A DNA stretch of 32,000 nt from Candidatus Iainarchaeum sp. GTDB lineage: Archaea; Iainarchaeota; Iainarchaeia; Iainarchaeales; CSSED10-239. The notes beneath the pieces were generated by a model, which made no database searches, had not been told where the DNA came from, and saw nothing but the letters and a program-made list of their open reading frames with translations. The translations under genes were made by a program, and so were the position numbers. The DNA lies in NCBI GenBank assembly GCA_037441475.1, contig JBBISB010000001.1, positions 36,418 through 68,417 on the forward strand, read 5' to 3'. How positions within the stretch are numbered: the first letter of the stretch is position 1; each line of letters opens with the position of its first letter. This document shows, one piece after another, positions 3,527 to 28,769 of the stretch.

Positions 3527-4576
3527 ATGTCCTCAAAAAAGAAAATTGGGCTTCCAGCAGGATCATTAGTATACACTGGTGATAAATCTCAAGATCTAAA
3601 GATTGAAGTTATTGAATACTCTACAGATCTTTATTCTCAAAAAGAAATGAGTTTAGATGACTTTTTAAAATTTCAAAAGAAAAAAGACTCAAAAATATGG
3701 GTAAATGTTATTGGTATTAATAATTCTTTAGCTATTTAAAAGATTGGTGAAAAGTACTCTATTAACTCCTTAGTTTTAGAAGATATTTTAAATATTAACC
3801 AAAGACCTAAGATAGATGATTTTCAAGATTATTTTTTCACAGTCTTTAGATCCTTTACTTTTAATGAAACTGAAAAAAAGATTAATGTTGAACAAATAAG
3901 TTTAGTTGTCTTTAAAGATATTTTATTTAACTTTCAAGAAAAAGAAACAGCTATCTTTAATCCATTAAAAACAAGATTAAGTAATGGTTCTTTTTCAAAA
4001 ATAAAAAATCATTATTCTGATTTTTTAGCATACGCTATTATTGATGTTGTTGTTGATAATTACTTTTTAGCCTTAGATGATCTTAATCGTCATGTAGATG
4101 ATGTTTATGAGGTTATCTTAGATAAACCAAGCTCTTCAAATGTCTCTGAGATTAATAAACTTAAAAAAGACTTAATTCTTTTAAGAAAATCAGTATGGCC
4201 ATTAAGAGAAAACATAAATAAGGTTTTAAAAGAAGAAATAAAACTTGTCTCTAAATCAACATTAATCTATTATAGAGATATTTATGATCACATTATACAC
4301 ACTATTGATATGATTGAAACAACAAGAGATATTGTTTCAAGCCTAATGGATATTTATCTTTCAACTATTAGTAACAGAATGAATGAGATTATGAAGGTTT
4401 TAACCATCTTTTCTACAATCTTTATACCCCTAACCTTCATTGTTGGACTTTATGGTATGAATTTTATTTATCTTCCTGAGTTTCAATGGAAGTATGGATA
4501 TCTTTTTGTATGGGTTATTATCTTAACTGTTGCAGGTTCTATGCTTTTGTTTTTTAGAAAAAGAAAATGGATTTAA
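3527..4576 (+). pseudogene. corA: CorA-type Mg2+/Co2+ transporter interrupted by one in-frame TAA (3737-3739)
   Basis: A single frame from 3527 to 4576 reads through to the CorA hallmarks LVLEDILNINQRPKIDDF and the two C-terminal TM helices with YGMNF. The only break is TAA at 3737-3739 (..NSLAI*KIGEKY..). Confidence 0.8.
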
Positions 4577-7885: not shown

Positions 7886-8959
7886 ATGAATATGAAAAAA
7901 GATATTAAAAAATCTTCATCTGCACATGCACAGAAGGAAGAACATCATGAACATAAAGTTCATTCTTCTAAAAGTAAAGCATGTTCAATGAAGAATAGTT
8001 TTTGGCAAATTACTTCTTTTGTTTTATTAATATTACTTGTAGTTGCAGCTGTTTTTGCATTTACTGGAAATAGTAAAGTAAAAGATGTATCTTGTGATAG
8101 TAATGTTGGAGAAGAGACTAGAAGCTTCTTAATTAGTGCATTTCAACTTCCTTCACTTGATTTAAAGACAACTGTTACTTCAAACAATATGTGTTTACAT
8201 ACTTTCAGTATTGAAGGACAAGATATAGAAATATACACTTCATTTGATGGTGAGGTTGTTTTTGTTCCTGGTCTTGAACCAATCAATAAAAGCACATTTG
8301 ATTCTGGAGTTTCCCAAGAGCCAGTAGCAAAGGAGTTACAAAAAACAGAAAAACCAGTTGTTGAGTTATTTGTAATGTCTCACTGTCCATACGGTACTCA
8401 AGTTGAGAAAGGTATCTTACCTGCAGTTGATGCTTTAGGAGACTCTATTGACTTTGAAATTAAGTTTGTAAATTATATAATGCACGATATTGTAGAAGTC
8501 GAAGAACAATTACTTCAGTACTGTATACAAGAAAGCTCTAAAGAAGTTTACAAAGAATATCTTTATTGTTTCTTAGAAGATGGAAATACTGATAGATGTC
8601 TTGAGAAAACAGGCGTTACAAGAGATTCATTAAGTACATGTATTTCAGAGACTGATCAAACATACAATATTATGGGATCATACTTAGATAAATCATCATG
8701 GCTTAGTGGAGTGTACCCTAAGTTTTTAATACATGATCAAGAGAATATCAAGTATGGGGTAAGAGGTTCACCTACTCTTGTTGTTAATGGAACTGTTGTT
8801 AATGCCTCAAGAGACTCTCAAAGTCTTTTAAATGCAATTTGTAATGGTTTTGAAACAGTACCAAGAGCATGTAATGAAGCTTTAAGCACAGCATCTCCAA
8901 CACCAGGATTTGGTTTTTCTGGCACAAGTGCAACAACTACAAATGCAACATGCGGATAG
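7886..8959 (+). CDS. membrane-anchored extracytoplasmic thioredoxin-fold protein (CPYG active site; DsbA/GILT-like)
   Basis: It has a His-rich N-terminus and one TM helix (FWQITSFVLLILLVVAAVFAF). The thioredoxin-fold signatures are FVMSHCPYG and GVRGSPTLVVNG. There are many additional Cys and a Thr/Ser-rich tail. Confidence 0.55.
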   Translation: MNMKKDIKKSSSAHAQKEEHHEHKVHSSKSKACSMKNSFWQITSFVLLILLVVAAVFAFTGNSKVKDVSCDSNVGEETRSFLISAFQLPSLDLKTTVTSNNMCLHTFSIEGQDIEIYTSFDGEVVFVPGLEPINKSTFDSGVSQEPVAKELQKTEKPVVELFVMSHCPYGTQVEKGILPAVDALGDSIDFEIKFVNYIMHDIVEVEEQLLQYCIQESSKEVYKEYLYCFLEDGNTDRCLEKTGVTRDSLSTCISETDQTYNIMGSYLDKSSWLSGVYPKFLIHDQENIKYGVRGSPTLVVNGTVVNASRDSQSLLNAICNGFETVPRACNEALSTASPTPGFGFSGTSATTTNATCG

Positions 8960-9732: not shown

Positions 9733-11561
9733 ATGTGTGGAATTGTAGGTTATATTGGAAAAAGAGATGTTTTACCTCTCTTGGTTAATGCTCTTTTAAG
9801 GTTAGAGTATAGAGGGTATGACTCCTGTGGTGTTTCTTTTTTAATAAATGGAAAAGTTGAAACAGTTAAGACAAAAGGGAAAGTTTTAACCTTAAAAGAA
9901 AAGATTGATTTTACAAGAAAAGCAAGCCTAGGTATTGCACATACAAGATGGGCTACACATTGAGAGCCTTCTGACATTAATTCACATCCTCACACTGATT
10001 CTTTAAATAAAATAACACTTGTTCATAATGGTATTATAGAAAATTATGAAAGTTTAAAAAAATTTCTTTTAACAAAAGGGTTTACCTTTAAATCACAAAC
10101 AGATTCTGAAGTATTCGCTGCATTAATCTCTTACTTTTATAAAGATGACCTTAAAGATGCGGTTTTAAAAGCAATATCACAAGTTGTAGGTACCTTTGGT
10201 ATACTGGTTATATCAGAGGGTAAACGTGAGATTGTTGTTGCAAGAAAAGGATCTCCAGTTGTTTTAGGTATTGGAAAAGAAGAATATTTTATAGTAAGTG
10301 ATACTTCTGCTATCTTAGAGTATACAAAAGAAGTTGTTTATTTAGAGGATGATGAAATTGTTTTAATAAACGATGAAGGATATTTGATAACTAACTTTAA
10401 TAATGAAAAGATAGATAAAGAAGTTGAAACACTTTCAATAACTATTGATCAAATAGAAAAGCAAGGCTTTAAACATTTCATGCTTAAGGAAATATATGAA
10501 CAGAAAGCCTCTATTAAGAATGCACTTGCAGGAAGACTTAATTTTTCTGAAAAGCAGGTTGTTTTAGGTGGTCTTGATTTTATAACTTTAGAATATTTAA
10601 AAAAATTAAAAAAAATATTTATTTTAGCATGTGGAACCTCTTGGCACTGTGCTTTAGTTTCAAAGTTTATTATTGAAAAGTATTTAAAAATTTCAGTTGA
10701 AGTTGACTATGCCTCTGAGTTTAGGTATAGAGACCCTTTAGTAGACCAAGATACTCTTGTTATTGTTATTTCTCAATCAGGGGAGACTGCAGACACATTA
10801 GCTGCTTTAAGAAAAGCTAAGAGAAAGAAGGCAAGAATCTTAGGGATTGTAAATGTTGTTGGTTCAACAATTGCAAGAGAAGCAGGATGTGGGATATATA
10901 CAAGGGCTGGACCTGAAATTGGTGTTGCCTCTACAAGGCTTTTACAAACCAGTTGGTGTCTATTTGGCTTTTAACTTTATTTGTTGGACAAAAGAATGGT
11001 TTAATCTCTCTTGAGGATAGAGAAAAGATTATTAAAAACCTCTCTTCTTTACCAGATATTCTTTTTGAAACAATTGAAGATAATCTTGAAACTATTAAGG
11101 AAATATCTAAAAGTTTTAAAGACTCTAAAAACTTTTTATATCTTGGAAGAGGGATTAATTACCCTATTGCCTTAGAAGGAGCCTTGAAGCTTAAGGAGAT
11201 ATCATATATTCATGCTGAAGGGTATCCTGCTGCTGAGATGAAGCATGGGCCTATTGCCTTGATTGATAAACAGATGCCTTGTGTTTTTATTGTAAACAAG
11301 AATAACAATTATGAAAAAGTAATTTCAAACATTAATGAGGTTAAGGCAAGGGGTGGTATTATTATCTCTGTTGCAACTGAAGGTGATGTTGATATTAAAA
11401 AAATATCTGACTTTGTAATATATGTAAAAGATATTGATAATGACTTTACTCCTTTTATTAATGTTGTTATAATGCAATTTCTTTCTTACTGTATATCAGA
11501 TCTTAAGGGATGTAATATTGATAAACCTAGAAACCTTGCAAAGTCTGTTACTGTTGAATAG
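9733..11561 (+). pseudogene. glmS: glutamine--fructose-6-phosphate aminotransferase, disrupted by an in-frame TGA (9961-9963) and a 1-nt frameshift (about 10933-10937)
   Basis: MCGIVGY...GIAHTRWATH*EPSDINSHPH places TGA where the invariant Gly of HTRWATHGxPS belongs. The SIS region reads GPEIGVAST, then shifts frame: acaagg versus the expected acaaagg would give KAFTNQLVSIWLL. The product ends with the canonical KSVTVE. Confidence 0.9.
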
Positions 11562-15668: not shown

Positions 15669-18600
15669 CTATTTTCTTTTCTTATAAATCTCTTTTCTTG
15701 AAAACAAGTACATGAAACTTGCCATAATCACTAAGACATAAAGAGTGAATGGAAGGATCTTTTCTGGAGCAAGAGGGATGTTTAAAGAACCTCTATCACT
15801 ACCTCCAGAACCTGCAAATGGGTTTAAAAGATTCTGAACTGTTGTTCCATATACCTTACCATCTTCCCCAGGTTTAAAAGTTACACCATCCCTGTATTCT
15901 GGGTTGAAAGGTATTAAATGACCATTTTCTGTATACCAGTTACCAGTCTTTGGATCATACCAGAAAGCACCATTCTTTCCTTGTGCTGAAAGTAAGGTCT
16001 CTGTTAGGTCATTATACTTTAATTTTGGAATACCGTCTTCTGCTGAAAACTCAAATTTATGCTCTTGACCATCCTCTGTGGTTACTATAAAACCATCAGG
16101 GGTAGTTAGAATAGAGCTTATAGCTTGATCAATAACTTGTCCAGTTTTTTTATCAATAATCTTCATTCTTTGTTGACATTCTGGAGCTGGTGTTGTATAG
16201 AAAATAAAAGTCTTTGAGGCTGTATCAAACATTTGGAAAGGACCTACTTTTTCTAAAGCCTTGTTCATTTCAACAGACTTTGCAACAGCTTCAGGGTTTG
16301 ACATGTCAGGAGAAATACTCATCTCAAAGGCATTCTCTTCACAGCCTGTAACTGGGTTTGTTTCTTTAATAGGCTTAACATCCATCCCTTTAATCTCAGA
16401 TTGATGCATTACATATGTTTGTTGAACCCACATTATGTAACTGTTTTTTTCTCCGTTGTATATTAATTGTCCTCTTTCAAACTGAACAGCTATGTTTTTA
16501 CCAATAGTTACTTCTTTACCTTCTATAGGGAAAAGCTTAGTTGTTCTATCTCCTAGGACAGTTATTCTTGATGCCTCACCAGAGGCTATTTTTCTTGGTG
16601 TTCCTTCAGCAACTATTTCTAAGCTATTACTTCTTCCTTTTGGTATTAAGTCATACTGTGTTTCAGGAGAGATTTGGTTTGTTGAAGTAACTTGTTTTAC
16701 AGCACCTAAATAATCTGTTAAAACATTGCCTGACATTTCAAGACCAGTTTGTTCATAGTAGTTTGTTTTTAAACAATTTAAGAAATTAATATCTTCTATT
16801 TTTAAGTTACCATAAACATCTATGTTAAACAAAGGAGTGTTTGTGTCTGGAACTGGGATATAGGATATACTGTGAGGAACAACTTTTGCTGGAATACCAA
16901 GGTTTGTTGCTATTAAACGTACCCAATCTTTATTTTCTGGACCAATTATTCTCTTGATATTTCCATCTTTATCAACAATGTTCATTTCTCCTTTTTCCTT
17001 ATCAACTATTAAGGTATCTACTGTTGTCTTATCTATTAAGTGTTCAACACCTTTGTCGTTATAACCGCTTGCTCTACAACTTGAGGCCTCTCCAAGTTCA
17101 AAGAAGAAAAGTTTTCCATCAAATGAAGCTGATGTGTTACCTATAGTTTCTATTCTTGATTGCATTATTGGATTGTCTTTTATTTTTGTTTCAGCAAACT
17201 GTTTTACTTCTTGTGTTGTTTTTGTAATTGATTCTTGAAGTTCTGTGTTTTTTGTAATGTTTGTTAAGGTCTTTTCAACAGAGTATGCACCTTTTGAGAT
17301 TGCATCTCCAACTTTGTTTTTAGGGTCTTTTTCTATTCTTTCAAACTCCTCTTGTGCAACAAAGAAGTGAGTGTAGTAACCTTCTTCATGATCTACACAG
17401 TTGTATATTTCAGGAACAATTACAAGTTGAGGTAAGATATCACCAAAGATTGCACCTAAGACTATTCTATGTTGAGGAACACTTAAGGAATAATAAATTA
17501 CATTTGAAAAACCAGCAGCAACTGCACCTGCTCTATATGATTGACCTGTCCATTGATTTGTCCACCCTATTGGTATTCCCATAACCTCTAGGTTTCTAAG
17601 TTTAGCTGAACATGTTTCTTCTTCTTTTATAGCTGTTAAAAGATTCACTGAGTTTTCTGTTTTAAAACCAGCTAAAGAACCATCATAGTCTGTGTGGTGA
17701 GAGAAAGCTATTAATGTTTTACCATATTTTTCAAAGTTTTCTCTAGAGGTGTTTTCTAAAAGATAACTTGTTGTTGTAACACCTGTGCTTGTTTGATAGT
17801 TAAGATGTAAGTTGTCATTTATATTTGTACCAATTGTTTGTTTTGCATCTATTGATCTACTTTTTGTAATTTCTTCAAGAAGTCTTGTGTCTCCTATCTT
17901 AATTTGACATGCATTTGTGTTACATGTTTTCATAGTGTCTGTAAGTAAAGCTATGTTATCTGTAAAGCTTCTTCTTATATGCCCTTCAGTAACGTTTCTT
18001 ACCCAGTCTGAAAAGCCTTGTGTTGTTTGCCATTCTGTACTTTCAAGTGCTCCTTTTGGAAGGTTTACCATCCAGAAGATAATTGAGTTAATGTATTGCA
18101 TGAAAAGATCTCCTTGATCAGAACCATCGTTTGCAAAGAAATCTATGTAGGAGTCATTATAGATATCTCCAGTTTCTCCATGTTTAAAGATTACTGATGT
18201 GTATGTTTCTGGTATTCTAAACATACTGTATCTATCAAATGCTCCCCCAAGTAAAGTAGAACCAGCTGTCTTAAATTGCCAGTATCCAAAGTTATAAAGG
18301 TAAGCTTTTCCTGAATCTGCAATAATATCAAATGCTCTTTTATCCCATTGAGTAATTGTTTGTTGTTTCATTCTTTGGTTTATATAGTTTAAACCTCTTC
18401 CTGTACTCCAACCTTGATTATTTAAGACAGTTACAACACCGTCTGTTACTAGTTCAGCATCTTTTATTTTCTTAGCCCCCATTTCTTGGAAATAACCTAA
18501 GGAAACTTCTAAAGGGTTAATTCCGTATTTTGGAAGATCTGCATCTGGAATTCCTGTTTCAATAATATTTCTCATGTTTATAGGTTCATTTGGTTTTATA

Positions 18601-20588
18601 TCAGCCATATCAATTACAGAACCTCTTACTGATTTTGCAGTTCCGTCTTGGGCAATATATTCTATTAAGACATCTGGTTTTTTATTGTATATAATATCAT
18701 TAAAGTTTAATGGATTTGCAGCACCTGTTGTTTCTTTGAAAGGAATAATAACATCTATTTGTTTAGGACCATCTGCAAAGTTAACTGTTATTCTTTTTGT
18801 TTCAAAATTATTCATGAAATTATCTGCAACAAGATTACCTGCATTATCAGTTTTATAAGGAGCATCTGTTAACATATCTCTAAACTTCTTTGACGAAGTA
18901 AGCTCTGTTGTTGTAATTTCATTTTTAAGCCTTACTTTATTCATCAGTTCATCTTTATTATTAATTATTTTACCTCTTTCTTTTAAAAGAGTTATATCTT
19001 TAGCTCCATCATCCCATTTGAAGTGTCCATTTGAAAATGCAGAGAATTCTTTATTAAGTTTATTTGCTCTTAAGACTTCTTCTGTTAACTTATCATATTG
19101 ATCTTTTGTTAAAGAAGCATAAAAGTCTTCCATTGTTTTTGTTTTATTAAATAAAATATCTGATGAACCTGGAGCTATTTTTTTAATATTTGCAGAAGTA
19201 ATGTCTTGCATCATTCTAGCTGTTCTTATGTTGCTTTGATATTCTAAGACAGATTCCATGAAAACTCTTTGTTGAGATTTATTAAGTTTTGCAAAAGTTC
19301 CTGAACCAAAGAATTCATTTTTAATTGTGTCTACATTCTTTTTAGAGTTTAAGGCATCAAGATATTTATCAAACTCAGGCTTCATATTGTATCTGTCTAT
19401 GTTGTATGTAATTTTTTTATTACTTTGTGCAAGATTTGATATATAATCATCCATGTTTTTTGATATTTTATTGTATCTATAAGTTGATACTGCAGAATCA
19501 AGAACACCCATATTATTTGTTAAATTATCAAAGAAACCATGTTTTCCTCTTATTCCACCTATAGCTTTATCATTAATTAGTTTTGTATTTCCTATTGATT
19601 TTGGAATGTTTTTAAAAACTCTACCTGTGAATTTCCATAACATAGGAGAGACAGATGTAAAAACAAGATCTGCTGAGTAATACATGTTAAAGACTTTATC
19701 AAACAAAGAGTACATGTTTATGTAACAGTTATCAGAGTTACAGGTACTCTCCATACTTGCATTAAAAGAATCTGTAATTATACTGTTTTTTATAGCTTCA
19801 TCTAAAATTAATTGCATTGATCTTATTTCTGCTTCTGTTATATTACTATCATCTGAGAATTGTATTTTTCTAAACTCAGCAAGCTCTTCATAAGACATGT
19901 TTGAAAATAAACCTAAATCTACATTTGAGTTGTAATCAAGAGAAGGATCTATTATTTCATTTGCAGCTTGACCTAAATCATCCAGACGTAATCTTTCAAT
20001 TAATAGCATGTCTATTAAATCTCTGCTAATAGACTTTGCTTGAGGGAAAAAACCATACTTTCCATTCTGTCTGAAAAGACCTTCATTTTCTAAGTAACAT
20101 GCAAAAGCATCTCCTCCTTGACATCTACCTACTCTTAGGGTATCTTTAAGATCTAAACCATGTGAGAAAGGACCATAACACACTTGTCCTAGAACAGTTG
20201 GAATTTCTAAAGGACTCATTAATTGATTTGGAATTTCTGTTTTACCTACAACATCATTTGCTTTTGTGTCTTTTGAAGTTATTAAAACTTGACTTTGATC
20301 CATTGTTTCTCTATTAAAGTTTGCTGGTTGATCACTGGATAAAAGATCTACTTTAAAACCCTTTACTAAAATTTCATTCCATAACCTCTCTACAGCTTCT
20401 GGAGATAACTCCTCTGTGTAACATGCAGAGCCCATGCTACTTGGGTTATAGCTTATTGGAACAGCATCTTGAAAGTAGAGAGTAGTATTATTTTTTGAAG
20501 ATAATCTATCTACATCTATGGAAGATGCAAAGACTCCATTTATCATTAATAATAAGAAAAATATTGCCAGTAGTTTATTTTTATTCAT
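15669..20588 (-). CDS. 1,639-aa orphan secreted protein with a C-terminal membrane anchor (candidate adhesin or S-layer-like surface protein)
   Basis: The N-terminal signal peptide is MNKNKLLAIFFLLLMINGVFA|SS. The C-terminus is a TM helix plus basic tail (ILPFTLYVLVIMASFMYLFSRKEIYKKRK). It has many N-x-S/T sequons and scattered Cys. No domain recognised. Confidence 0.85.
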   Translation of the reverse strand: MNKNKLLAIFFLLLMINGVFASSIDVDRLSSKNNTTLYFQDAVPISYNPSSMGSACYTEELSPEAVERLWNEILVKGFKVDLLSSDQPANFNRETMDQSQVLITSKDTKANDVVGKTEIPNQLMSPLEIPTVLGQVCYGPFSHGLDLKDTLRVGRCQGGDAFACYLENEGLFRQNGKYGFFPQAKSISRDLIDMLLIERLRLDDLGQAANEIIDPSLDYNSNVDLGLFSNMSYEELAEFRKIQFSDDSNITEAEIRSMQLILDEAIKNSIITDSFNASMESTCNSDNCYINMYSLFDKVFNMYYSADLVFTSVSPMLWKFTGRVFKNIPKSIGNTKLINDKAIGGIRGKHGFFDNLTNNMGVLDSAVSTYRYNKISKNMDDYISNLAQSNKKITYNIDRYNMKPEFDKYLDALNSKKNVDTIKNEFFGSGTFAKLNKSQQRVFMESVLEYQSNIRTARMMQDITSANIKKIAPGSSDILFNKTKTMEDFYASLTKDQYDKLTEEVLRANKLNKEFSAFSNGHFKWDDGAKDITLLKERGKIINNKDELMNKVRLKNEITTTELTSSKKFRDMLTDAPYKTDNAGNLVADNFMNNFETKRITVNFADGPKQIDVIIPFKETTGAANPLNFNDIIYNKKPDVLIEYIAQDGTAKSVRGSVIDMADIKPNEPINMRNIIETGIPDADLPKYGINPLEVSLGYFQEMGAKKIKDAELVTDGVVTVLNNQGWSTGRGLNYINQRMKQQTITQWDKRAFDIIADSGKAYLYNFGYWQFKTAGSTLLGGAFDRYSMFRIPETYTSVIFKHGETGDIYNDSYIDFFANDGSDQGDLFMQYINSIIFWMVNLPKGALESTEWQTTQGFSDWVRNVTEGHIRRSFTDNIALLTDTMKTCNTNACQIKIGDTRLLEEITKSRSIDAKQTIGTNINDNLHLNYQTSTGVTTTSYLLENTSRENFEKYGKTLIAFSHHTDYDGSLAGFKTENSVNLLTAIKEEETCSAKLRNLEVMGIPIGWTNQWTGQSYRAGAVAAGFSNVIYYSLSVPQHRIVLGAIFGDILPQLVIVPEIYNCVDHEEGYYTHFFVAQEEFERIEKDPKNKVGDAISKGAYSVEKTLTNITKNTELQESITKTTQEVKQFAETKIKDNPIMQSRIETIGNTSASFDGKLFFFELGEASSCRASGYNDKGVEHLIDKTTVDTLIVDKEKGEMNIVDKDGNIKRIIGPENKDWVRLIATNLGIPAKVVPHSISYIPVPDTNTPLFNIDVYGNLKIEDINFLNCLKTNYYEQTGLEMSGNVLTDYLGAVKQVTSTNQISPETQYDLIPKGRSNSLEIVAEGTPRKIASGEASRITVLGDRTTKLFPIEGKEVTIGKNIAVQFERGQLIYNGEKNSYIMWVQQTYVMHQSEIKGMDVKPIKETNPVTGCEENAFEMSISPDMSNPEAVAKSVEMNKALEKVGPFQMFDTASKTFIFYTTPAPECQQRMKIIDKKTGQVIDQAISSILTTPDGFIVTTEDGQEHKFEFSAEDGIPKLKYNDLTETLLSAQGKNGAFWYDPKTGNWYTENGHLIPFNPEYRDGVTFKPGEDGKVYGTTVQNLLNPFAGSGGSDRGSLNIPLAPEKILPFTLYVLVIMASFMYLFSRKEIYKKRK

Positions 20589-20601: not shown

Positions 20602-21099
20602 TTATAGGTATATTAAATATATTAAAATTGCTATTAATTTTGGAAATATTAAAAGAATAATAAAGAAGATGATGTTTGTTAAGATCAAACTCTTTATTAA
20701 ATTAAGGTTTGTTTTTGGATGTTTCTTTTTTTCATTAAACTTATCGTAGAAGGCAAGGGTAATAAAAGAGAAGCCTAAAAAGACACCAGATATTAAAATA
20801 TTAACTATTAATAATCTTATTAAGTGATAGAAGATTATACCAAGGATGTTTAAGAAGCTAACTCCTTTAAAGATACTTAGGAGTGGTAAAAAGTATATTA
20901 AAAGTAAGATAATATAGCTTAAAATAAAAATTATTATAAAAAGAGAAAAGATAACACTTTTTTTCTTTCTTAAAAGAAGATATTTATTTTTAAAAATTTT
21001 AATAAGTATGAAAAAAGGAATAGCACAAAGAATAGATAAACCAATTAATTTTACTATTGTCAATAAATAATTTAAAACCACTTGAAATAAATTTTCCAT
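20602..21099 (-). CDS. polytopic membrane protein (165 aa), immediately upstream of and co-oriented with the giant protein gene
   Basis: About five hydrophobic helices separated by Lys-rich loops. It stops 13 nt before the giant ORF start. No family recognised. Confidence 0.6.
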   Translation of the reverse strand: MENLFQVVLNYLLTIVKLIGLSILCAIPFFILIKIFKNKYLLLRKKKSVIFSLFIIIFILSYIILLLIYFLPLLSIFKGVSFLNILGIIFYHLIRLLIVNILISGVFLGFSFITLAFYDKFNEKKKHPKTNLNLIKSLILTNIIFFIILLIFPKLIAILIYLIYL

Positions 21100-21216: not shown

Positions 21217-21888
21217 ATGGACGTTCAAAACATACCAAGAAGAGAAAGAAGGCATTTTAGGAAATATATAGATGGTGAGATTGTTTATTCTGAGGTTCCT
21301 TTTGGACATGAAGAAAAACATAATTATTCTAAAAATAATGATTTTTCTAAAAATAATGATACAACTGTTAAGAATCTTCTTGATATTGATGGTAAGAGAA
21401 AACCTGTTTTGCATGATGATCAAAAAATACAGAAGGTTTTACAAAATATATCTGATATTGTGTCTCCAGATTTAGACTCTGTTGCTGAAGCTATTTATCA
21501 CCAGATAAGTAAGGATAGTAGTTTTAATGATTTTAAGAAAGAAGAGATTGAAGAGACTATTAAAGGAAGTAAACATTATAGGGCTATAAAGAATGATAAG
21601 AATCAAGAGATTATTGATTCTGATAATATGAAGTTATTGGTTGAAGATGTTTTTATTCAACTTGAGAATGAAAACAAAGAAAGTAACCCTTCTGAAAAGA
21701 AAGAAGCTGTAAAAGAATCTTCTTCTAAATGTAAAAAAGAACCTGCTTCTAAGGGAAAGAAAGAGGATTTAAAGAAAGTTAAAAAGAAAGAAGAAAAATC
21801 AGAGATTCAAGATTTATTGGACGATGATTCTGATGAAATTGATTTTGATGAAGAAGATAGTGATGATGATTTAGGCCTTAAATTTTAA
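21217..21888 (+). CDS. acidic/Lys-rich low-complexity protein with a DDDLGLKF C-terminus
   Basis: 223-aa ATG ORF on the opposite strand, between the two minus-strand units. The C-terminal third is KKE-rich and then Asp/Glu-rich. Its stop overlaps the convergent gene's stop by 4 nt. Confidence 0.6.
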   Translation: MDVQNIPRRERRHFRKYIDGEIVYSEVPFGHEEKHNYSKNNDFSKNNDTTVKNLLDIDGKRKPVLHDDQKIQKVLQNISDIVSPDLDSVAEAIYHQISKDSSFNDFKKEEIEETIKGSKHYRAIKNDKNQEIIDSDNMKLLVEDVFIQLENENKESNPSEKKEAVKESSSKCKKEPASKGKKEDLKKVKKKEEKSEIQDLLDDDSDEIDFDEEDSDDDLGLKF

Positions 21889-22643
21889 GGTTCTTCTGGA
21901 TCTTGATATTCTTTACATCTAAGGTTTGATATGTTTTCATTTTGTTCAAAAGTAGAACTAAGTAACTGATTATTTATACTGCTTGTTGATGGCCACATCG
22001 TTAAGCTTGCAACTGTTCTTACTTCTGCTAATCTAGAATCTAGGGTCTTAAAGATTAATGGTGTTGAAGAAGAGTAGAGTTTGTTTGATCTTTGTACCAA
22101 GTATCTTACTGGGGTAATACTTATTGGATCACATAAATAGTATTTTGAGACTATTTCTAAATCTGGTTTAATTTCATTTATTTTTAACATAAAGTAAATA
22201 AAATCATCATTACTAGTATTTTGGATATAATAAATATAATCATAGTTTGGTAAAGGATGCATTAATGATTTTATGGTATGGAAGAGATTATACTTTGCAA
22301 GATCTTTAACATTTTCTTTATTAAGAGAATTTACATCACTTCCACCTATCTTTTGATTAAAAAGATAATCACTTTTTATAGCTGTAATCAAGTAATCAGT
22401 TTCTTTACTATTTAAAATATTTTTATCAAAATCTAAAGGAATATTTGTGTAGTAGATGGCCTTAAGGCTGGAGTTTGTATATTCTTTGAAGTATAGGTTA
22501 TTTATAGCAAGATCTATTCTTTCTCCGTATGTTGAGGAAAATTTGAAAAGAAGAACACATAAGGCAACAATGATTGTTAAGAAAAATAAAGAGTCTGTCA
22601 TTGCTGCTTGACCTTTATCATTCTTAAGTTCTATTAATTTCAT
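21885..22643 (-). CDS. pilin-like protein with a class III signal peptide (252 aa)
   Basis: The N-terminus is MKLIELKNDKG|QAAMTDSLFFLTIIVALCVLLF, i.e. a [KR]G|Q site followed by a hydrophobic helix. It is paralogous to the N-terminus of ORF 24712..25260. Confidence 0.6.
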   Translation of the reverse strand: MKLIELKNDKGQAAMTDSLFFLTIIVALCVLLFKFSSTYGERIDLAINNLYFKEYTNSSLKAIYYTNIPLDFDKNILNSKETDYLITAIKSDYLFNQKIGGSDVNSLNKENVKDLAKYNLFHTIKSLMHPLPNYDYIYYIQNTSNDDFIYFMLKINEIKPDLEIVSKYYLCDPISITPVRYLVQRSNKLYSSSTPLIFKTLDSRLAEVRTVASLTMWPSTSSINNQLLSSTFEQNENISNLRCKEYQDPEEP

Positions 22644-22650
22644 AAATATT

Positions 22651-23178
22651 TTACTCCCATATTAAAACATACAATCTTGCTGTTGTTGAAAAACCATTAT
22701 CTCTTTGTAGGATAATTGGATAAAGGTAGTTGATGTGATTTTTTGAAAGATCTTTTAATTGTTTTAAATTTTCTTCTTCTTCGTTACATATAAAATAATC
22801 TGGTGTACTAGGGTCATTTTTAAGGCTTGAAAGAACTATTGATTCATGGTTATCAGATATTTCTTGGAGAGAAATATTTGCATAATCTTCAGTATCTAAG
22901 GGAAGATCTATAAGAAAGGCATTCCATTTTTTTGTAGTTTTTATTTTATCACATTTATCTTTGAAATGTTGGTAATCAACAATAACAGGATCTGATTTTA
23001 ATTGCATAGAAATTTCAATTGCTTCTTGGTTTAAGGTGTATGTTTTGTTTTTAGCATTATAATCATTGAAGGTACCTAAAAAAACTGCAAAGAAAACAAC
23101 TAAACCTAGAAATATTGGTATTAAACTAGGAAGGTCATCTCCGATTGCTCCAATAAATCCTTTTTTTGTTTTAATCAT
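22651..23178 (-). CDS. pilin-like / N-terminally anchored secreted protein (175 aa), degenerate class III signal
   Basis: MIKTKKG|FIGAIGDDLPSLIPIFLGLVVFFAVFLG is followed by a soluble domain with 2 Cys. Confidence 0.5.
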   Translation of the reverse strand: MIKTKKGFIGAIGDDLPSLIPIFLGLVVFFAVFLGTFNDYNAKNKTYTLNQEAIEISMQLKSDPVIVDYQHFKDKCDKIKTTKKWNAFLIDLPLDTEDYANISLQEISDNHESIVLSSLKNDPSTPDYFICNEEEENLKQLKDLSKNHINYLYPIILQRDNGFSTTARLYVLIWE

Positions 23179-23198
23179 TTTTTATCATTTTTTAAAAA

Positions 23199-23855
23199 TT
23201 ATTCAGAAACTTGTGTTGCACAAAAGCTCCCTGTTATATTTTCACCAAGACATTTAATTTCTTCTCTATTAAAGTTATCTAAATTACATACATACTCTCT
23301 GCAAGTGTAAAGATTATTTTTTCTTCCACAAGGAAGTACATAATAATAACTTTGACTATCTTTTACATTTTTTATAAACATAAATTTAGTTTCATTTGAG
23401 TTTGCTTTTCTAGGGTCATAGATTATTTGTTGATTATTTTCTTGGGAAAAAGAATAATTTCCGTTAGCATAAGTAGAAGAATAGAAAGCAATGGTTCCAT
23501 TATAATCAAGGTTGTATGCACCTAAAATATTTCTTTCTCTATAATCTGTTAAATAGATTATTAAAGATTGATTATTAAGTTGCTGGTAGCTTTGTAGCCC
23601 TAGCTTATAGGGGGTTCCTGAAAGAGAGGAACCTTCATTTATTTTTATGGTTTTTGGAATATCAATAAACTTTACTGAACAGTAGCTATCTGAGTCTATT
23701 AAGGATTTAATCTCTTTACCTATCTTAAAGGCAGTTTCATAACTTTGTCTTGTCTTAAGGTTATCATTTAAAGTGTTCATAAAGAAGATTACAACTACAG
23801 CTATTGCTGTAACAAAGATAAGCATATTTATTTTTGATAAAGTAAATTCAAACAT
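23199..23855 (-). CDS. Cys-rich pilin-like protein (218 aa) with an atypical short leader
   Basis: The N-terminus MFEFTLSKINMLIFVTAIAVVVIFF recalls FTLxE-type pilin N-termini but lacks a K/R-G leader. It has 7 Cys, clustered near the C-terminus (CGRKNNLYTCREYVCN...CLGENITGSFC). Confidence 0.5.
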   Translation of the reverse strand: MFEFTLSKINMLIFVTAIAVVVIFFMNTLNDNLKTRQSYETAFKIGKEIKSLIDSDSYCSVKFIDIPKTIKINEGSSLSGTPYKLGLQSYQQLNNQSLIIYLTDYRERNILGAYNLDYNGTIAFYSSTYANGNYSFSQENNQQIIYDPRKANSNETKFMFIKNVKDSQSYYYVLPCGRKNNLYTCREYVCNLDNFNREEIKCLGENITGSFCATQVSE

Positions 23856-23864
23856 CTATTAATT

Positions 23865-24434
23865 TCACCTTGTTTTAATCATACAAATAGTATGATTAGC
23901 TCCTGAACCTGATTTTTTAAAAATCTTGTATCTTCCAGAGGGTATCTTTTCTATAGGGTTAATTGCTTCTTCTGATGCTTCTAAAGGGGCACATTGATTT
24001 TCACCAATTTCAAATTGTAGGTTTGTTGGAAGATAGGTACAGATAGGAGGAATTGGTTGTTTATAATCTAGCTTTTCTGGATTTTCATAAGAGTATTCTA
24101 AAAGAACACAACTTGTACCTGACCCACATATTCTTTCACATCTATCTTTATCATCTGAAATAATATTTAATCTAACCATTTCATATTTATCATTATAACA
24201 AGCCTTGGTTGTAAAATCAATAGTTCTGTATGCAAGATCTGAACCTAAAACTATTTCTCTTAAAGAAGAATTAAGATTACTAAAGTCTTGTCTTTTGTTT
24301 CCAAGACAGGTATTTTCATTTAAGTTTGCAAGAGCATAGTTACCTGCAATAATAACAAAAGTCATTACTATAATTGCAACTAAAAGTTCAAAAGGAGCAC
24401 TCATTTGTGCTTTTTGTTTTTTACTTGAATACAT
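23865..24434 (-). CDS. Cys-rich pilin-like protein (189 aa), class III-like signal (KA|Q)
   Basis: MYSSKKQKA|QMSAPFELLVAIIVMTFVIIAG at the N-terminus. There are 10 Cys in the soluble domain, including DRCERICGSGTSCV. Confidence 0.55.
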   Translation of the reverse strand: MYSSKKQKAQMSAPFELLVAIIVMTFVIIAGNYALANLNENTCLGNKRQDFSNLNSSLREIVLGSDLAYRTIDFTTKACYNDKYEMVRLNIISDDKDRCERICGSGTSCVLLEYSYENPEKLDYKQPIPPICTYLPTNLQFEIGENQCAPLEASEEAINPIEKIPSGRYKIFKKSGSGANHTICMIKTR

Positions 24435-24503
24435 ATATTATAAAGATATTATAAGAAGTATTTAAAATAGTTATCTTTTTTTAAAATAAATAAAAAAAGG
24501 CTT

Positions 24504-24704
24504 CTACTGAACAGGAGCTGACTGTACTGGAAGAGCTGCTTGTTTTGCAGAAGTTTTAACAGATTTATTAAACATTGGTTTTATAACAGCGATAAGGACG
24601 ATTGCAACAATTGCTATTACAACTAAAAAGAAAATTGTGTTAGACTCTGTTTGTCCTCTTTGATCATTTAAGATCTGTTTTATTTTCTTTTTAATTGTTT
24701 TCAT
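24504..24704 (-). CDS. minimal Flp-like pilin (66-aa precursor)
   Basis: MKTIKKKIKQILNDQRG|QTESNTIFFLVVIAIVAIVLIAVI is followed by a 25-aa tail only, ending AALPVQSAPVQ. Confidence 0.6.
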   Translation of the reverse strand: MKTIKKKIKQILNDQRGQTESNTIFFLVVIAIVAIVLIAVIKPMFNKSVKTSAKQAALPVQSAPVQ

Positions 24705-24711
24705 ATCTCAA

Positions 24712-25260
24712 TCACTCTTTTACAGGGAATACAATACATACTCTTGAACTATTTGTGGATTCGAATCCTGATTCAGTTATATCCAATTCTGATAAAATAT
24801 TATTTGAAAGTGAGCTTGAAGAAGTTATAAAATTATCTAATCTTTCAGCATCTCTATGACATAAGACTCCAAATTTATAATTTATTCTTTCTGATTTTTT
24901 TATTTGAAGTATTTGTCCATCAGAAGAAACTCCAAAATCAGATGAATATTTGGAAGGCACAATAAATTTTACACTTTCAGGATCCATTCCTGATCCATCA
25001 GTAATTGCATCTGTGGCAACTGTTCCTTGAGTTTTAGAAGATACTTTAATAGATTCTGTAAGTGTTATTGTTCCTGGTAAGTCTTGATTACTTTTTATTT
25101 TTTCTTTAACACTATCAGTAATATTTCCTCCCGCAGGATTTATTCCACCAATTATTGGCATTAAAACACCAAGAAGGGCAAGAGCAACAACAGCAGCTAT
25201 CAGTAATTGAAATGTTGAGAATGCTTGACCTTTACTATTTTTTAAAGATATTAATTTCAT
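24712..25260 (-). CDS. pilin-like protein with a class III signal peptide (182 aa)
   Basis: MKLISLKNSKG|QAFSTFQLLIAAVVALALLGVLM at the N-terminus. The Q at +1 and the hydrophobic helix match archaeal DUF361/EppA-type pilins. Confidence 0.65.
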   Translation of the reverse strand: MKLISLKNSKGQAFSTFQLLIAAVVALALLGVLMPIIGGINPAGGNITDSVKEKIKSNQDLPGTITLTESIKVSSKTQGTVATDAITDGSGMDPESVKFIVPSKYSSDFGVSSDGQILQIKKSERINYKFGVLCHRDAERLDNFITSSSSLSNNILSELDITESGFESTNSSRVCIVFPVKE

Positions 25261-25341
25261 ATTAATTTTTCACCTCAAATATATAATAATATATAAAAAC
25301 TAATTAATTTTAAAGTCCAAAAGATATTTAAATGTTATTCT

Positions 25342-25839
25342 TTAAAAGAAAATTAAACCTTTTACAATACTTAAGGAAATTGTAAAAATAACAGGTATTA
25401 ATATCATAAATACAACCTCTTTTGTCTGTATACCAGCTCTTGGTTCCTTGTAATCAAAAACTTTGTTTTTATAAGTAACTCTTCTTCTAACTATTAAAAT
25501 ATTCCATAAAGAACCAAAAATAAAAGCAGAGATTGCCCAAATAACAGTTATCTTTAGATTAAAACTTGAAATCTTCATTATGCTTTTCCAAAAAAGCATT
25601 AAAACACCGTAAGAGACACCTAAAGAAAAGAACATTGTTATAAACAATTTTACTTTTCTGTTTAAGAAGAAATCTAAGGATTTACTAAATATTAAAGATA
25701 TTAAGAACAAAAGGCTCATTAAAACAACAATTAAGGCAATTATTGCTAAGATAATAATTCCAAAGAAATAACCAAAGACAAGGACGATTATGGCAAGTAA
25801 AAAATATTTAATGTTTCCTGTCCAACTTCTTTTTCTCAT
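25342..25839 (-). CDS. polytopic membrane protein (165 aa) embedded in the pilin operon
   Basis: Four to five TM helices. It lacks the paired-Asp/GxGD motif of prepilin peptidases. No family recognised. Confidence 0.55.
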   Translation of the reverse strand: MRKRSWTGNIKYFLLAIIVLVFGYFFGIIILAIIALIVVLMSLLFLISLIFSKSLDFFLNRKVKLFITMFFSLGVSYGVLMLFWKSIMKISSFNLKITVIWAISAFIFGSLWNILIVRRRVTYKNKVFDYKEPRAGIQTKEVVFMILIPVIFTISLSIVKGLIFF

Positions 25840-25856
25840 TCTTTAAAACCATTTTT

Positions 25857-26384
25857 TTAATTTGTTAAACCTTTTGGTATCTTGTTGATGTACATTACAC
25901 AGAAAAGTCTTTCACAATCATCTGGATCATTTATAGGCGCATTTGCATAAGTTGTGATCTCAGAATATGTTTCAGTATTAGTTAAATCCGAAATAGACAT
26001 TCCACTTAAACCACAAACAAAATAAACATCTGTTTTAAGATATTTTTTATCAATAACAGCACCATAATTTTCAAGCTTAACACCTGGACCTACAATAAAA
26101 GAAAAACATCCTTCTTCAATGTTTCCAAGCTGCTCATACCTTGAGTGACTAATAATACCTCTTACTAAAACATCTTTAACAACAAAAGGTTTATCCATAC
26201 TTATTATTGGACTGTTTATAGCAGATATAAAGGCATCTTCTATCTTTTGATTACTAATAATTATTGCTTGGTCATTTGTTTTGTTAACCATCATAATAAT
26301 AATACCAAGGATGGCTACAGAGATTACAAAAGCTATCAAAAGTTGATATGCTTCAAAAGCCTGTCCTTTATTATTTTTAATCAT
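25857..26384 (-). CDS. pilin-like protein with a class III signal peptide (175 aa)
   Basis: MIKNNKG|QAFEAYQLLIAFVISVAILGIIIMMV at the N-terminus, with 5 Cys in the soluble domain. Confidence 0.65.
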   Translation of the reverse strand: MIKNNKGQAFEAYQLLIAFVISVAILGIIIMMVNKTNDQAIIISNQKIEDAFISAINSPIISMDKPFVVKDVLVRGIISHSRYEQLGNIEEGCFSFIVGPGVKLENYGAVIDKKYLKTDVYFVCGLSGMSISDLTNTETYSEITTYANAPINDPDDCERLFCVMYINKIPKGLTN

Positions 26385-26410
26385 ATTTAAAAGTCTTTTT
26401 TAATTTTTTT

Positions 26411-28651
26411 TTAAAACATCATGTTAGCTAAGATAGTTGTTAAGATAAAAAGAATAGTTGCAACAGGAAGAGTTTGTGCAATCCTTACTTTTGTTAAAAT
26501 ACTGTTCTCTTGCTCTATCATGGTTGTAAAGTAAACAATAATTATAACAATCTGTATAACATAGATAGCAACAATTATTAAAAATGTTGTAGAATCTGCA
26601 AACTTTGCAATATTTGTAGGGTCAATGGAGGTACCTAGACCAGAGATACTTGAAGTGTTTATACTTCCACCAATAGCACTCACTCCTGAGCTTATACCTT
26701 GAACCATCTTATCCATATCATCCATAACATTACTTGAGGCAATGGAATTTAGAGTTGACATTACTATTCTTTGAAGAGCAGTTGTTATACCTAAGATAAT
26801 AGGTGCAATATACTTAGCCATACTGTTTAATGTCCCTGTAATATCTGCAATCAAGCTTGAAAGCATTTTAGAAACTTCATCTGTATTTCTAAGTTGCATA
26901 GAATAAGACATTAATGTCTTTGCAGCAACTGAAACTCCAAGCTGTACTGAATCAACAACTAATAGCATTGCACTATTAATTAATCTTGAAGGATTGTTCT
27001 TTAAAGCACCGTAGTTAGGATCAAACAATGAGGCCTTTAAATTAAGACCCATTATTCTTATATTGTCCAAGGTTTTTGCAAAAACATTTTGTGCAATCAA
27101 AGAGTTTGGTAAAAAGTTTCTTGTATGGTTTAAGGCCTCTTCAATAGGTTTATTTTCACCAAGTCTACTTGCAATAATGTAAAGAGCATCCTTAAACTCT
27201 TCTTCCATTTTTTGTGATTTTACCTGAACTCTTCTTTTGTAGATACTTGTTCCATAAAGATAAATTGATATTAAAAAACTTATTAATAGTAAGGAACCAT
27301 AAATGATATAGTAAGGAGTTGTGTCATTCTCTGTTTTTAACCAAAAATCCCTCTCAGTTTGACATTGGAACTTAGATTCTTTAGCTTTTAAAACAAGCTC
27401 CTCTGTGGTACACATAAAATCAGCATCACTTACACTTTCTCCTTCTGAGATGTACCCTTCATTAAGAAGAATATTGTATTTTGTTTTTCCTAAAGTGCTT
27501 TGCAGAAAAACACTTGTCCCTATTAAGATAACTCCAACAATTATCATTAACATAAAAACATTTATTTTAAAATTTCCAAAAACCATAGTGTTTTTAGGAG
27601 GAAGATCAGGGTGGTTATCAGGGATTACAGGTGGAAGGTACGTTATTGGTCTTTCCCTTATTACCTTTCTTGCAAAGATAAAACAACCTAAGGGAATTGC
27701 AATATTGTAAATTAAGATTAAATAAACTGGTCTTGCAAGAGAAGAATCTGAGAAAGCAGAACCAACTGGTAGAATAATTATTAAAAGAAGAGGAAGTAGA
27801 ATACCTAAATAAAACATAACCATTGCAGGTTGAGATAAACCCCTTGCATACTCTTCAAGTTTTCCTTTTATAGAAGAAAGAGTATCCTCCATGGTGTTAT
27901 CTAGGATTTGATATCTTTTTGATTCTGAAATTTCAATAACACTTGATCTTATTTTCATTAAAGACTTTTTAAACTCTTGAGAGACATCTCCCCATTTATA
28001 GGCAAGCTCATCAACAGCCTCAGCAACACTTCCTTTAATACCGACCTTAACTTCCCATAATAAAGTTTTTAGGTCCTCAGCTATCTTTCCATGACCATGG
28101 TTTGATGCAAACTCAATTGCTTTTTCAAGGTTTGGTACAAGTTTCATAGACATTATCATATACCCTAAGATTTCAGGAACAAAGGTTAAGGCATATACTT
28201 TTTCAAGATCAACTTTTCTTTGTGGATAGTTTTTAAAATAATTTATGGCATAGATGTATCCTATTAAAGGACCACCAATTGAAAAAATAGTTGGAATCAT
28301 TGCACTTCCAAACATCTTAATTAAGCTTGGCATTGCATAAAGATATAAAAGTAAGACTGTTACAAAAGTTATTATAAATCCACCAAAGATAACTGTCTTA
28401 TAACCAGCAAAATATTCTTCTGACTTTAAATCCCATTTTAGAAAGTCAATAGCATTTTGTAACTTTTCATCAAATTTTGTGTTTCTACCAAGAGAAGGAA
28501 ATTGTTGATATGCCTTTTTACAAAAAACAACATATTTATTTTCAACTTTTTTTGAAAGTCTTTCTTCATCTAGAGAAAAATCTCTTGCTTCTATGGATAT
28601 TGAACTATACAACTGGCCAGGGCTTTTTCTTGGTGTTTTTGTCTGATCCAT
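26411..28651 (-). CDS. 746-aa polytopic membrane protein with two T2SS-F-like halves (FlaJ/TadC/EpdJ-type type IV filament platform; provisional)
   Basis: It has two cytoplasmic helical-bundle-like segments, each followed by TM helices: LVPNLEKAIEFASNHGHGKIAEDLKTLLWEVKVGIKGSVAEAVDELAYKW and FKDALYIIASRLGENKPIEEALNHTRNFLPNSLIAQNVFAKTLDNIRIMGLNL. It is the first gene of the pilin operon. The call was made by eye only. Confidence 0.55.
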   Translation of the reverse strand: MDQTKTPRKSPGQLYSSISIEARDFSLDEERLSKKVENKYVVFCKKAYQQFPSLGRNTKFDEKLQNAIDFLKWDLKSEEYFAGYKTVIFGGFIITFVTVLLLYLYAMPSLIKMFGSAMIPTIFSIGGPLIGYIYAINYFKNYPQRKVDLEKVYALTFVPEILGYMIMSMKLVPNLEKAIEFASNHGHGKIAEDLKTLLWEVKVGIKGSVAEAVDELAYKWGDVSQEFKKSLMKIRSSVIEISESKRYQILDNTMEDTLSSIKGKLEEYARGLSQPAMVMFYLGILLPLLLIIILPVGSAFSDSSLARPVYLILIYNIAIPLGCFIFARKVIRERPITYLPPVIPDNHPDLPPKNTMVFGNFKINVFMLMIIVGVILIGTSVFLQSTLGKTKYNILLNEGYISEGESVSDADFMCTTEELVLKAKESKFQCQTERDFWLKTENDTTPYYIIYGSLLLISFLISIYLYGTSIYKRRVQVKSQKMEEEFKDALYIIASRLGENKPIEEALNHTRNFLPNSLIAQNVFAKTLDNIRIMGLNLKASLFDPNYGALKNNPSRLINSAMLLVVDSVQLGVSVAAKTLMSYSMQLRNTDEVSKMLSSLIADITGTLNSMAKYIAPIILGITTALQRIVMSTLNSIASSNVMDDMDKMVQGISSGVSAIGGSINTSSISGLGTSIDPTNIAKFADSTTFLIIVAIYVIQIVIIIVYFTTMIEQENSILTKVRIAQTLPVATILFILTTILANMMF

Positions 28652-28769
28652 ATATCTTTCTTCTTTAATGATTTTTACAAAATTATATAAAATTGTATAT
28701 AGATATATTTTTATATGTGTCCATTTATAAATTTTATGTAAAACAATTATTTTAGAAGGTGATTTATAG
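28652..28769. promoter_or_regulatory. divergent promoter spacer between the platform/pilin operon and the ferredoxin gene
   Basis: 118-bp AT-rich spacer with several TATA-like boxes, e.g. TTTATATAA on the minus strand about 40 nt upstream of the 28651 start. Specificity is low in this AT-rich genome. Confidence 0.35.
28757..28762 (+). promoter_or_regulatory. Shine-Dalgarno-like site (AGGTGA) for the ferredoxin gene
   Basis: AGGTGA ends 7 nt before ATG 28770. Confidence 0.5.

Follow-up and report, generated by a model that had tools for sequence, protein, structure and literature searches.

A probable type IV pilus-like locus of Iainarchaeota whose motor ATPase gene lies apart from the platform and pilin-like genes

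We analysed a 32,000-nucleotide stretch of DNA from Candidatus Iainarchaeum sp. (the window), in which a minus-strand gene cluster encodes a platform protein of 746 amino acids (aa) followed by a series of small, pilin-like membrane proteins. We consider it likely that this locus is the platform and filament-subunit half of a type IV pilus-like machine, whose ATPase gene has been relocated and would act in trans. Contig coordinates given below refer to record CAZGHU010000001.1 (GCA_964526055.1; 671,531 bp), where window position 1 is at about 36,418; the GC content of the window is about 28%. The relatives of the locus all come from metagenome-assembled genomes (MAGs) labelled Diapherotrites, Iainarchaeum or 'ainarchaeum', that is, from the DPANN/Nanobdellati phylum Iainarchaeota.

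The cluster starts with the platform open reading frame (ORF; 26411-28651), which is followed by eight ORFs down to position 21885, seven of them for pilin-like proteins (g1 to g7) and one for a protein with five transmembrane (TM) segments; an earlier reading of the same DNA (the original prediction) had counted nine genes after the platform gene. The nine ORFs of the operon are all intact, and the gaps that follow the platform gene are, in order, of 26, 17, 81, 7, 69, 9, 20 and 7 nt, in agreement with the tight spacing of 7-81 nt reported before. The conserved unit runs past the limits first assigned to it (21885-28651) and reaches position 15669, so that a membrane protein of 165 aa and a surface protein of 1639 aa also belong to it. 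The features are as follows; in the N-terminal motifs, a slash marks the putative processing junction.

28652..28769, no strand: divergent intergenic region of 118 bp between the platform and ferredoxin genes; site of the ATPase gene in sister lineages.
26411..28651, minus strand: platform protein, 746 aa, TadC/FlaJ/PilC-type, with T2SSF matches in its family and two predicted T2SS-F-like cytoplasmic helix bundles.
25857..26384, minus strand: g1, 175 aa, NKG/QAFEAYQLL; class III-type motif and single N-terminal hydrophobic helix, orthologues in 14 loci; candidate filament subunit.
25342..25839, minus strand: 5-TM protein, 165 aa, between g1 and g2; five segments predicted by hydropathy.
24712..25260, minus strand: g2, 182 aa, SKG/QAFSTFQLL; 13 orthologues, most with KGQ[AE]FS[TV]F[QK]LLI; candidate major subunit.
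24504..24704, minus strand: g3, mini pilin-like protein, 66 aa, QRG/QTESNTIFF; Flp-sized, with one hydrophobic helix and a short tail.
23865..24434, minus strand: g4, 189 aa, 8 Cys, QKA/QMSAPFELL; motif kept in 12 orthologues.
23199..23855, minus strand: g5, 218 aa, 6 Cys, MFEFTLSKINMLIF; single N-terminal TM segment, 11 orthologues, no basic leader.
22651..23178, minus strand: g6, 175 aa, KKG/FIGAIGDDLPSLIP; motif kept in 11/11 orthologues.
21885..22643, minus strand: g7, 252 aa, DKG/QAAMTDSLFF; motif kept in 11 orthologues.
20602..21099, minus strand: 5-TM membrane protein, 165 aa; invariably encoded ahead of the giant protein, in the same position in 11 loci of both lineages.
15669..20588, minus strand: giant surface protein, 1639 aa; Sec-type signal peptide, anchored by a C-terminal TM segment; candidate adhesin or cargo.

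Upstream of the platform gene lies, as had been noticed before, a divergent gene for a 63-aa 4Fe-4S ferredoxin, and then a gene of the AP-endonuclease-2 family; the intergenic region of 118 bp contains TTTTATATAA about 30-40 nt 5' of the platform ATG. The claim that neither an ATPase nor a prepilin peptidase is encoded in cis was borne out in the window and its flanks. Blast comparisons (tblastn) with three ATPases of the family gave no match, neither in the 32 kb of the window nor in the adjoining 10 kb on the upstream side, and no T2SSE or Peptidase_A24 Pfam match is recorded for contig positions 27,841-75,068, which include about 8.6 kb past the other end of the window.

Comparison with other Iainarchaeota indicated that this arrangement is characteristic of a clade. 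The homologues of the platform form two groups, a close clade of about 43 clusters with 58-97% identity, to which the window belongs, and all the others, which are 41-52% identical to that clade and that we call sister lineages. We read the sister loci L002/L003 (L002 is Ga0209514_10000002 of the Joint Genome Institute, JGI), L004 (GCA_040755695.1, JBFMAK010000003.1) and L008 (L008/L009 are CAZSOZ010000003.1), and the close-clade loci L001 (the window), L005, L006 and L007. In the sister loci, the gene for a T2SS-E (type II secretion system E) ATPase of 759-764 aa ends within about 50 nt of the start of the platform gene, with a 1-base overlap in L008, and the platforms are 43-48% identical to that of the window; clusters for ATPase and platform also occur on contigs of matching size in at least ten further sister cases. 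After the platform gene come orthologues of all seven pilin-like genes, in unchanged order, and then a convergent gene, a polytopic membrane protein of around 179 aa and a giant protein of 1490-1543 aa. In all four close-clade loci, the ferredoxin gene is in the position of the ATPase gene (the ferredoxin-platform junction is kept in L005, L006 and L007), and an extra 5-TM gene follows the first pilin gene. Because it is common to these four loci, the layout without ATPase is a conserved feature of the clade and not an accident of assembly.

A candidate for the missing motor is encoded on the same contig. P0500, a T2SS-E ATPase of 770 aa, lies at about 521,754-524,066, on the same strand as the platform gene (about 62,828-65,068) and about 457 kb away from it. 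It matches PF00437 (E=1.5e-16) and keeps the Walker A motif (GSRGAGKT), the Asp box, LRLGDSALIVGEVR in the Walker B region and the His box; its best matches in the PDB are Archaeoglobus fulgidus GspE 2OAP (1.2e-29), CpaF (3.8e-24) and FlaI (1e-22). The original prediction had proposed that the motor was encoded elsewhere or had been replaced, and our results support the first possibility and not the second, P0500 having intact motifs and residing on the same contig. That prediction had also named a conventional ATPase-platform pair elsewhere in the genome as a finding that would speak against it, and P0500 has no platform gene within 10 kb.

P0500 belongs to a distinct group of ATPases, which was detected with the family-invariant peptide LRTALRLGDSA-x3-GE[VI]R, converted into a degenerate DNA pattern with the AT-rich codon preferences of the window. 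This pattern yielded 37 matches in metagenome contigs from JGI, including a tight group of stand-alone, full-length ATPases (767-771 aa, on contigs of 25-32% GC) that show 71-95% identity among themselves and 55-58% to the sister ATPases, with no platform gene beside them in flanks of up to 10 kb. A homologue search starting from one stand-alone ATPase retrieved 31 clusters of the group, and P0500 was found among the cluster members. Other searches did not lead to this group: with a sister-lineage ATPase as query, the best 120 matches were all sister-lineage proteins; a search of representatives, in which the family was collapsed at 50% identity, failed to set the clade of the window apart; and a scan of genome contigs with variable peptides of a single protein retrieved only close relatives. 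Among the 12 loci with stand-alone ATPases that we compared, a gene for replication protein A (RPA) flanks the ATPase gene in seven, a surface-layer (S-layer) gene is nearby in five, and both occur in four. The most economical reading would be that the ATPase gene was relocated once, in an ancestor, and that the platform and P0500 are still partners. Dozens of residues in the cytoplasmic bundles of the platform are invariant in both lineages, which would fit with the same ATPase partner being still bound.

The RPA/S-layer setting (S_layer_C) of the ATPase was seen at positions 16818-19334 (minus strand) of L056, the locus that contains the distant ATPase in this genome, and also in L020, L025, L028, L034, L035, L047 and L053, with toxin-antitoxin and Abi modules (AbiEi/AbiEii and HicAB) variably inserted in between. 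P0500 itself contains three CxxC pairs (residues 26-29, 103-106 and 152-155) within an N-terminal extension of around 300 residues, which is probably a zinc-binding module and has no counterpart in FlaI or A. fulgidus GspE. The sister ATPases often reach 1260-1290 aa on account of an intein with a homing endonuclease (PF14528, PF14890), as in P0150, P0151, P0155, P0172, P0178, P0179, P0182, P0189, P0197, P0198 and P0213; the window-clade ATPases listed are devoid of it. In the three sister loci that were read (3/3), a polytopic membrane protein of ca. 331-336 aa precedes the ATPase, and a surface protein of 2500-2800 aa is found further out; two of the three (L002 and L004) also contain an upstream archaeosortase (Exosortase_EpsH) gene. 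These genes mark a larger cell-surface gene neighbourhood upstream of the sister ATPase (5922-6470 in L002, 4835-5404 in L004, and beyond).

The platform protein has at least eight TM segments predicted by hydropathy. Pfam T2SSF (PF00482) matches its residues 165-295 with E=0.0018 and 18.7 bits, which is below the cut-off of 25.2 bits; nevertheless, 38 of the 47 aligned members of the family are matched by T2SSF, with a best E value of 2.7e-6. The C-terminal half alone had no Pfam match at E<=10. A 629-aa relative, L031, contains two T2SSF stretches above the Pfam threshold, the better one at its residues 378-516, and both halves of the platform align to it: residues 61-338 with L031 29-289 (E=7e-26), and residues 453-740 with L031 344-612, the second T2SSF repeat (E=2e-22). 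Since both halves align to this two-repeat T2SSF protein, the platform is, by transitive homology, a protein with two T2SS-F-like halves. The original prediction of two such halves is therefore retained, for the N-terminal half through a sub-threshold Pfam match and for the C-terminal half through L031, with no direct Pfam match for the latter. We also considered an internal duplication of the platform, which was rejected: the profiles of its N- and C-terminal halves showed no similarity in hhalign comparisons, even after adding remote homologues.

An AlphaFold2 (AF2) model of the platform, built with 47 homologues, is all-helical (predicted local distance difference test score, pLDDT, 77.6; predicted template-modelling score, pTM, 0.71), and would contain two cytoplasmic helix bundles, at about residues 150-300 and 480-640. 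Between them, the model and the hydropathy profile place an extracytoplasmic insert with two Cys at about residues 388-446, in accordance with the Cys-containing insert that had been described. A profile of the 47 homologues found no match among PDB sequences at E<=1. At the level of domains, Foldseek matched the model to SpoIIIAB 6bs9, weakly (TM-score on target of 0.67-0.69), and to a PilC model; we take SpoIIIAB to have the fold of the GspF/PilC cytoplasmic domain. Compared with L031, the extra length of the platform resides in the N-terminus, in the insert between the halves and in a Ser/Gly-rich loop at about 640-680. This large size had been considered special to the locus, a claim that we abandon because all the 411 homologues found, which come exclusively from Iainarchaeota/Diapherotrites-type MAGs, are about 725-810 aa long, with or without an adjacent ATPase.

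The N-termini quoted for the pilin-like proteins in the original prediction were identical, letter by letter, to the ORF translations. Each of the seven proteins has exactly one predicted hydrophobic or TM segment, which is N-terminal, and Q occupies position +1 after [KR][GA] in five of the seven. We searched all the window ORFs of at least 50 aa in six frames for [KR][GA] followed by Q, F or Y in the first 30 residues and by a strongly hydrophobic 16-mer within the next 12. This rule was satisfied by six out of 70 ORFs, every one of them in the operon, and therefore by six of the eight genes after the platform. The junctions are conserved among orthologues, as KG/Q[AE]FE in g1, KG/Q[AE]FS.F[QK]LLI in g2, [KR][GA]/Q..APF[EQ]LL in g4, K[GA]/[FY][IL]G[AP]IGDDLPSLIP in g6 and [KR][GA]/QAA[IMV]TD[AS]L[FY]FL in g7. 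Orthologues of g3 (49-76 aa) occur in 12 loci with the junction [KR][AG]/Q...VIKPMF, and the N-terminus of g5 is MFEFTLSK here versus MLG/FTLSK in the sister lineages. Additionally, g1 and g2 are paralogues, alignable from end to end, in which the Q at +1 is invariant and a pair of Cys is conserved, and g5 showed a sub-threshold match to Pfam Flp_Fap (PF04964; E=0.02, 15.1 bits versus a cut-off of 32.2 bits). We identify these proteins as putative pilins from their motif, their one N-terminal helix and the operon context, which is conserved.

Several of the pilin-like proteins are rich in Cys, with eight residues in g4, six in g5 and four in g1, besides the conserved pair common to g1 and g2. 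The window also encodes (7886-8959, plus strand) a membrane-anchored protein of 357 aa that appears thioredoxin/DsbA-like by eye, with no Pfam family recorded. The Cys-rich pilin-like proteins and this DsbA-like neighbour hint at a possible extracytoplasmic formation of disulfides.

The 5-TM protein encoded between g1 and g2, whose five predicted segments agree with the original prediction, has homologues (163-165 aa) in L005, L006 and L007 and in none of the sister loci, and showed no match in Pfam, NCBIfam or PHROG. We examined it as a TadV-like mini prepilin peptidase of the A24 type, and discarded it because its four orthologues do not have a common Asp pair or a GxGD motif. The giant protein (TM segments 6-24 and 1611-1629) has homologues of 1490-1772 aa in the same position in in-clade and sister loci, with 23-56% identity by tblastn in 12 loci, and had no match in Pfam.

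From these observations, we infer the following mechanism. The seven pilin-like pre-proteins would insert in the membrane through their single N-terminal helix, and six of them would be cut behind [KR][GA] by a prepilin peptidase encoded elsewhere. The double T2SS-F platform would then extract the subunits from the membrane and polymerise them, driven by a hexameric ATPase of the FlaI/GspE/CpaF type supplied in trans from about 457 kb away, whose gene would have moved, in this clade, from the operon to a conserved site between RPA and S-layer genes. The filament shaft would probably be built by g1/g2 and/or by the mini-pilin g3, with g4-g7 probably acting as minor, priming or tip subunits. The small membrane protein and the 1639-aa surface protein probably participate in the same surface or attachment function, and the filament might serve in adhesion or in host contact.

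A number of results weigh against this interpretation. The 69 kb of the genome that were read (the window, its flanks and the distant ATPase locus) yielded no prepilin peptidase, and a screen for polytopic GxGD proteins across all the compared loci found a single presenilin-type signal peptide peptidase (SPP), in a relative; archaeal PibD/FlaK peptidase genes are usually unlinked to pilus loci. The original proposal of a type IV filament with motor and peptidase encoded elsewhere thus stands as regards the filament-type locus and the motor; the peptidase is absent in cis within those 69 kb. The roughly 600 kb of contig outside the examined portion could hold a second platform or ATPase, and the partnership of the platform with P0500 is suggested by orthology and by the matching clade structure. 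The T2SSF assignment of the C-terminal half of the platform is transitive only, and Foldseek gave no significant match for the model of the platform against the PDB. The sole attempt at a pilin structure, an AF2 model of g2 from a single sequence, was uninformative (pLDDT 49.7). Lastly, the seven pilin-like proteins did not match Pfam pilin families or PF04021, NCBIfam, PHROGs or, in a profile search, the PDB, and 24 scanned orthologues did not show even a weak match to PF04021 or any pilin family. This absence of matches agrees with the literature, in which the pilus components of DPANN archaea are described as having diverged too far for recognition by sequence (PMC6393860; also PMC4858521).

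We weighed the proposed pilus-like machine against other explanations, starting with those that give the same genes a different role. The locus might encode a short pseudopilus or secretion device, T2SS-like or bindosome-like, that exports, displays or anchors the 1639-aa giant protein, and S-layer components perhaps as well. In all the lineages examined, synteny links the pilin genes to those of the giant protein and of its small membrane partner; a fixed set of seven distinct pilin-like genes is more reminiscent of pseudopilins than of a single major pilin, the relocated ATPase is near an S-layer gene, and another filament could have its true major pilin in the PF04021 protein found elsewhere in the genome (see below). 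However, with its ordinary Sec-type signal and C-terminal anchor, the giant protein does not require an exporter of its own; between its gene and the pilin genes lies a convergent gene; and we know of no archaeal T2SS-like secretion of this kind demonstrated for such loci. All in all, we regard this device as unlikely, although it is the main rival of our reading. A bolder version, in which the uncoupling of the ATPase coincided with the gain of the 5-TM protein, appears quite unlikely to us: the seven-pilin machine would be a pseudopilus for host contact or surface deployment, placing or extruding the giant protein at the symbiont-host interface, and the 5-TM protein would be an adaptor recruiting the motor in trans.

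Three further explanations were considered. It is very unlikely that the likeness of the small proteins to prepilins is a coincidence and that they are common surface proteins, signal-anchored or secreted through Sec, with the platform as the only pilus-related component. Their lack of profile (hidden Markov model) or structural matches to pilins, the absence of a basic leader in g5 and the F instead of Q at +1 in g6 speak for it, but the six motif-bearing ORFs of the window form one uninterrupted group right after the platform gene, the [KR][GA]/Q or F junction is kept in 11-14 orthologues per group while the rest of the sequence has diverged to 20-45% identity, and the sister lineages carry the same genes in an operon headed by ATPase and platform. 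That the locus is a decaying, non-functional remnant left after the loss of the ATPase from the operon seems highly improbable; even with no ATPase in cis, and with GlmS-like and CorA-like genes of the window being split, the nine ORFs are intact, the layout is kept in at least 43 platform clusters of 58-97% identity, and an ATPase with intact catalytic motifs is maintained at a conserved second site. An archaellum for motility, in place of a pilus, is hardly credible. Its ATPase and platform families are homologous to those found here, the platform being FlaJ-like and the ATPase FlaI-like, and the ATPase appears in certain database entries as 'archaeal flagellar protein FlaI'; nevertheless, there is no archaellin, FlaF, FlaG, FlaH or FlaCDE/X match (Pfam, NCBIfam) among the operon proteins or their neighbours, and P0500 matches A. 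fulgidus GspE and CpaF better than FlaI.

Having both a T2SS-F platform and, in trans, an ATPase of the T2SS-E/VirB11 family (P0500), the probable pilus-like machine can be compared with known type IV filaments. The Epd pili of Methanococcus maripaludis comprise the pilins EpdA-E, the peptidase EppA and EpdJ/K/L, with two TadC-like proteins beside the ATPase and the EppA gene in the pilin locus. As in that system, Q is found at +1 after [KR][GA] (in 5/7 proteins here), there are multiple minor pilin-like genes, and the pilin genes are apart from the ATPase gene. Unlike it, the locus has no PF04021/DUF361 match and no EppA-like gene, and there is one fused, double-T2SSF platform instead of two TadC-like proteins, which in Methanococcus stay with the ATPase. 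We consequently do not maintain the Epd/DUF361 label originally given to the locus, since neither the seven proteins nor the 24 orthologues match PF04021; an unrelated 122-aa pilin of the genome does.

That protein is a stand-alone pilin encoded in L056 (14478-14846, minus strand), around 2 kb from the distant ATPase, which matches PF04021 with 29.3 bits and contains KA/QISLEFLIILG. It shows weak similarity to g4 (28% over 104 aa, E=0.003), and is possibly the major pilin of this filament or of another one.

Likeness to bacterial Tad/Flp pili is also partial. P0500 matches CpaF (3.8e-24), and the Flp-sized g3 (66 aa) is accompanied by larger, pseudopilin-like proteins. In contrast, there is a single platform with a double domain rather than TadB plus TadC, there is no TadZ, secretin or TadV, Flp_Fap appears below threshold and on g5 rather than on g3, and P0500 is closer to archaeal GspE 2OAP. 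With neither a Flp pilin nor separate TadB and TadC proteins, the Tad-like label is likewise not supported.

In a census of archaeal type IV pili, the ATPase and TadC appear as one module, with the pilins often in trans (Makarova, Koonin, Albers 2016; PMC4858521). The locus agrees with those systems in having an ATPase of the VirB11/FlaI family, a platform of the FlaJ/TadC family and putative pilins with class III-type motifs, as well as in the frequent presence of S-layer-like or adhesin-like proteins and a usually unlinked peptidase (PMC4858521). It differs in that the split occurs between ATPase and platform, with the platform remaining with the pilins, and in that the core proteins are unusually long (770 and 746 aa) and the pilin-like proteins match no pilin arCOG or Pfam family. 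We rate the system as a divergent, lineage-specific variant of archaeal type IV pili, which has the sequence-family hallmarks of neither Epd nor Tad. No publication on pili of Iainarchaeota came up in a literature search.

Archaea of the DPANN group are believed to rely on contact between cells, and most of their surface machinery lacks annotation. Our comparisons define, across the phylum Iainarchaeota, a conserved module made up of genes for the ATPase, the platform, the seven pilin-like proteins, one small membrane protein and the giant surface protein, all of whose subunits are invisible to current profile libraries. The module also illustrates that the ATPase gene is separable from the platform gene and can be stably kept at a second locus, so that such systems would be overlooked or wrongly scored by detection tools that rely on ATPase and platform genes being adjacent. 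What we describe is a known kind of machine with its genes in an unusual arrangement, and neither a filament without a motor nor a new mechanism.

Other genes of the window deserve a brief description. A protein of 223 aa, rich in Lys, Asp and Glu and ending in DDDLGLKF (21217-21888, plus strand), is convergent with the g7 gene, with a 4-nt overlap; it has homologues only in the close clade, whereas the sister lineages have an unrelated convergent gene in that place. A GlmS-like gene (MCGIVGY..., with two SIS domains) is distributed over three ORFs on the plus strand (9733-9963, 10384-10974 and 10953-11561), suggesting frameshifts, a pseudogene or assembly errors. Likewise, a CorA-type Mg transporter is present only as N- and C-terminal pieces (3527-3739 and 4310-4576, plus strand), and an intact CorA gene adjoins the distant ATPase locus (L056, 4398-5342). 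Finally, positions 4740-7172 (plus strand) encode a protein of 810 aa that consists almost entirely of decapeptide repeats (PF25296, E=1e-166, 12 stretches).

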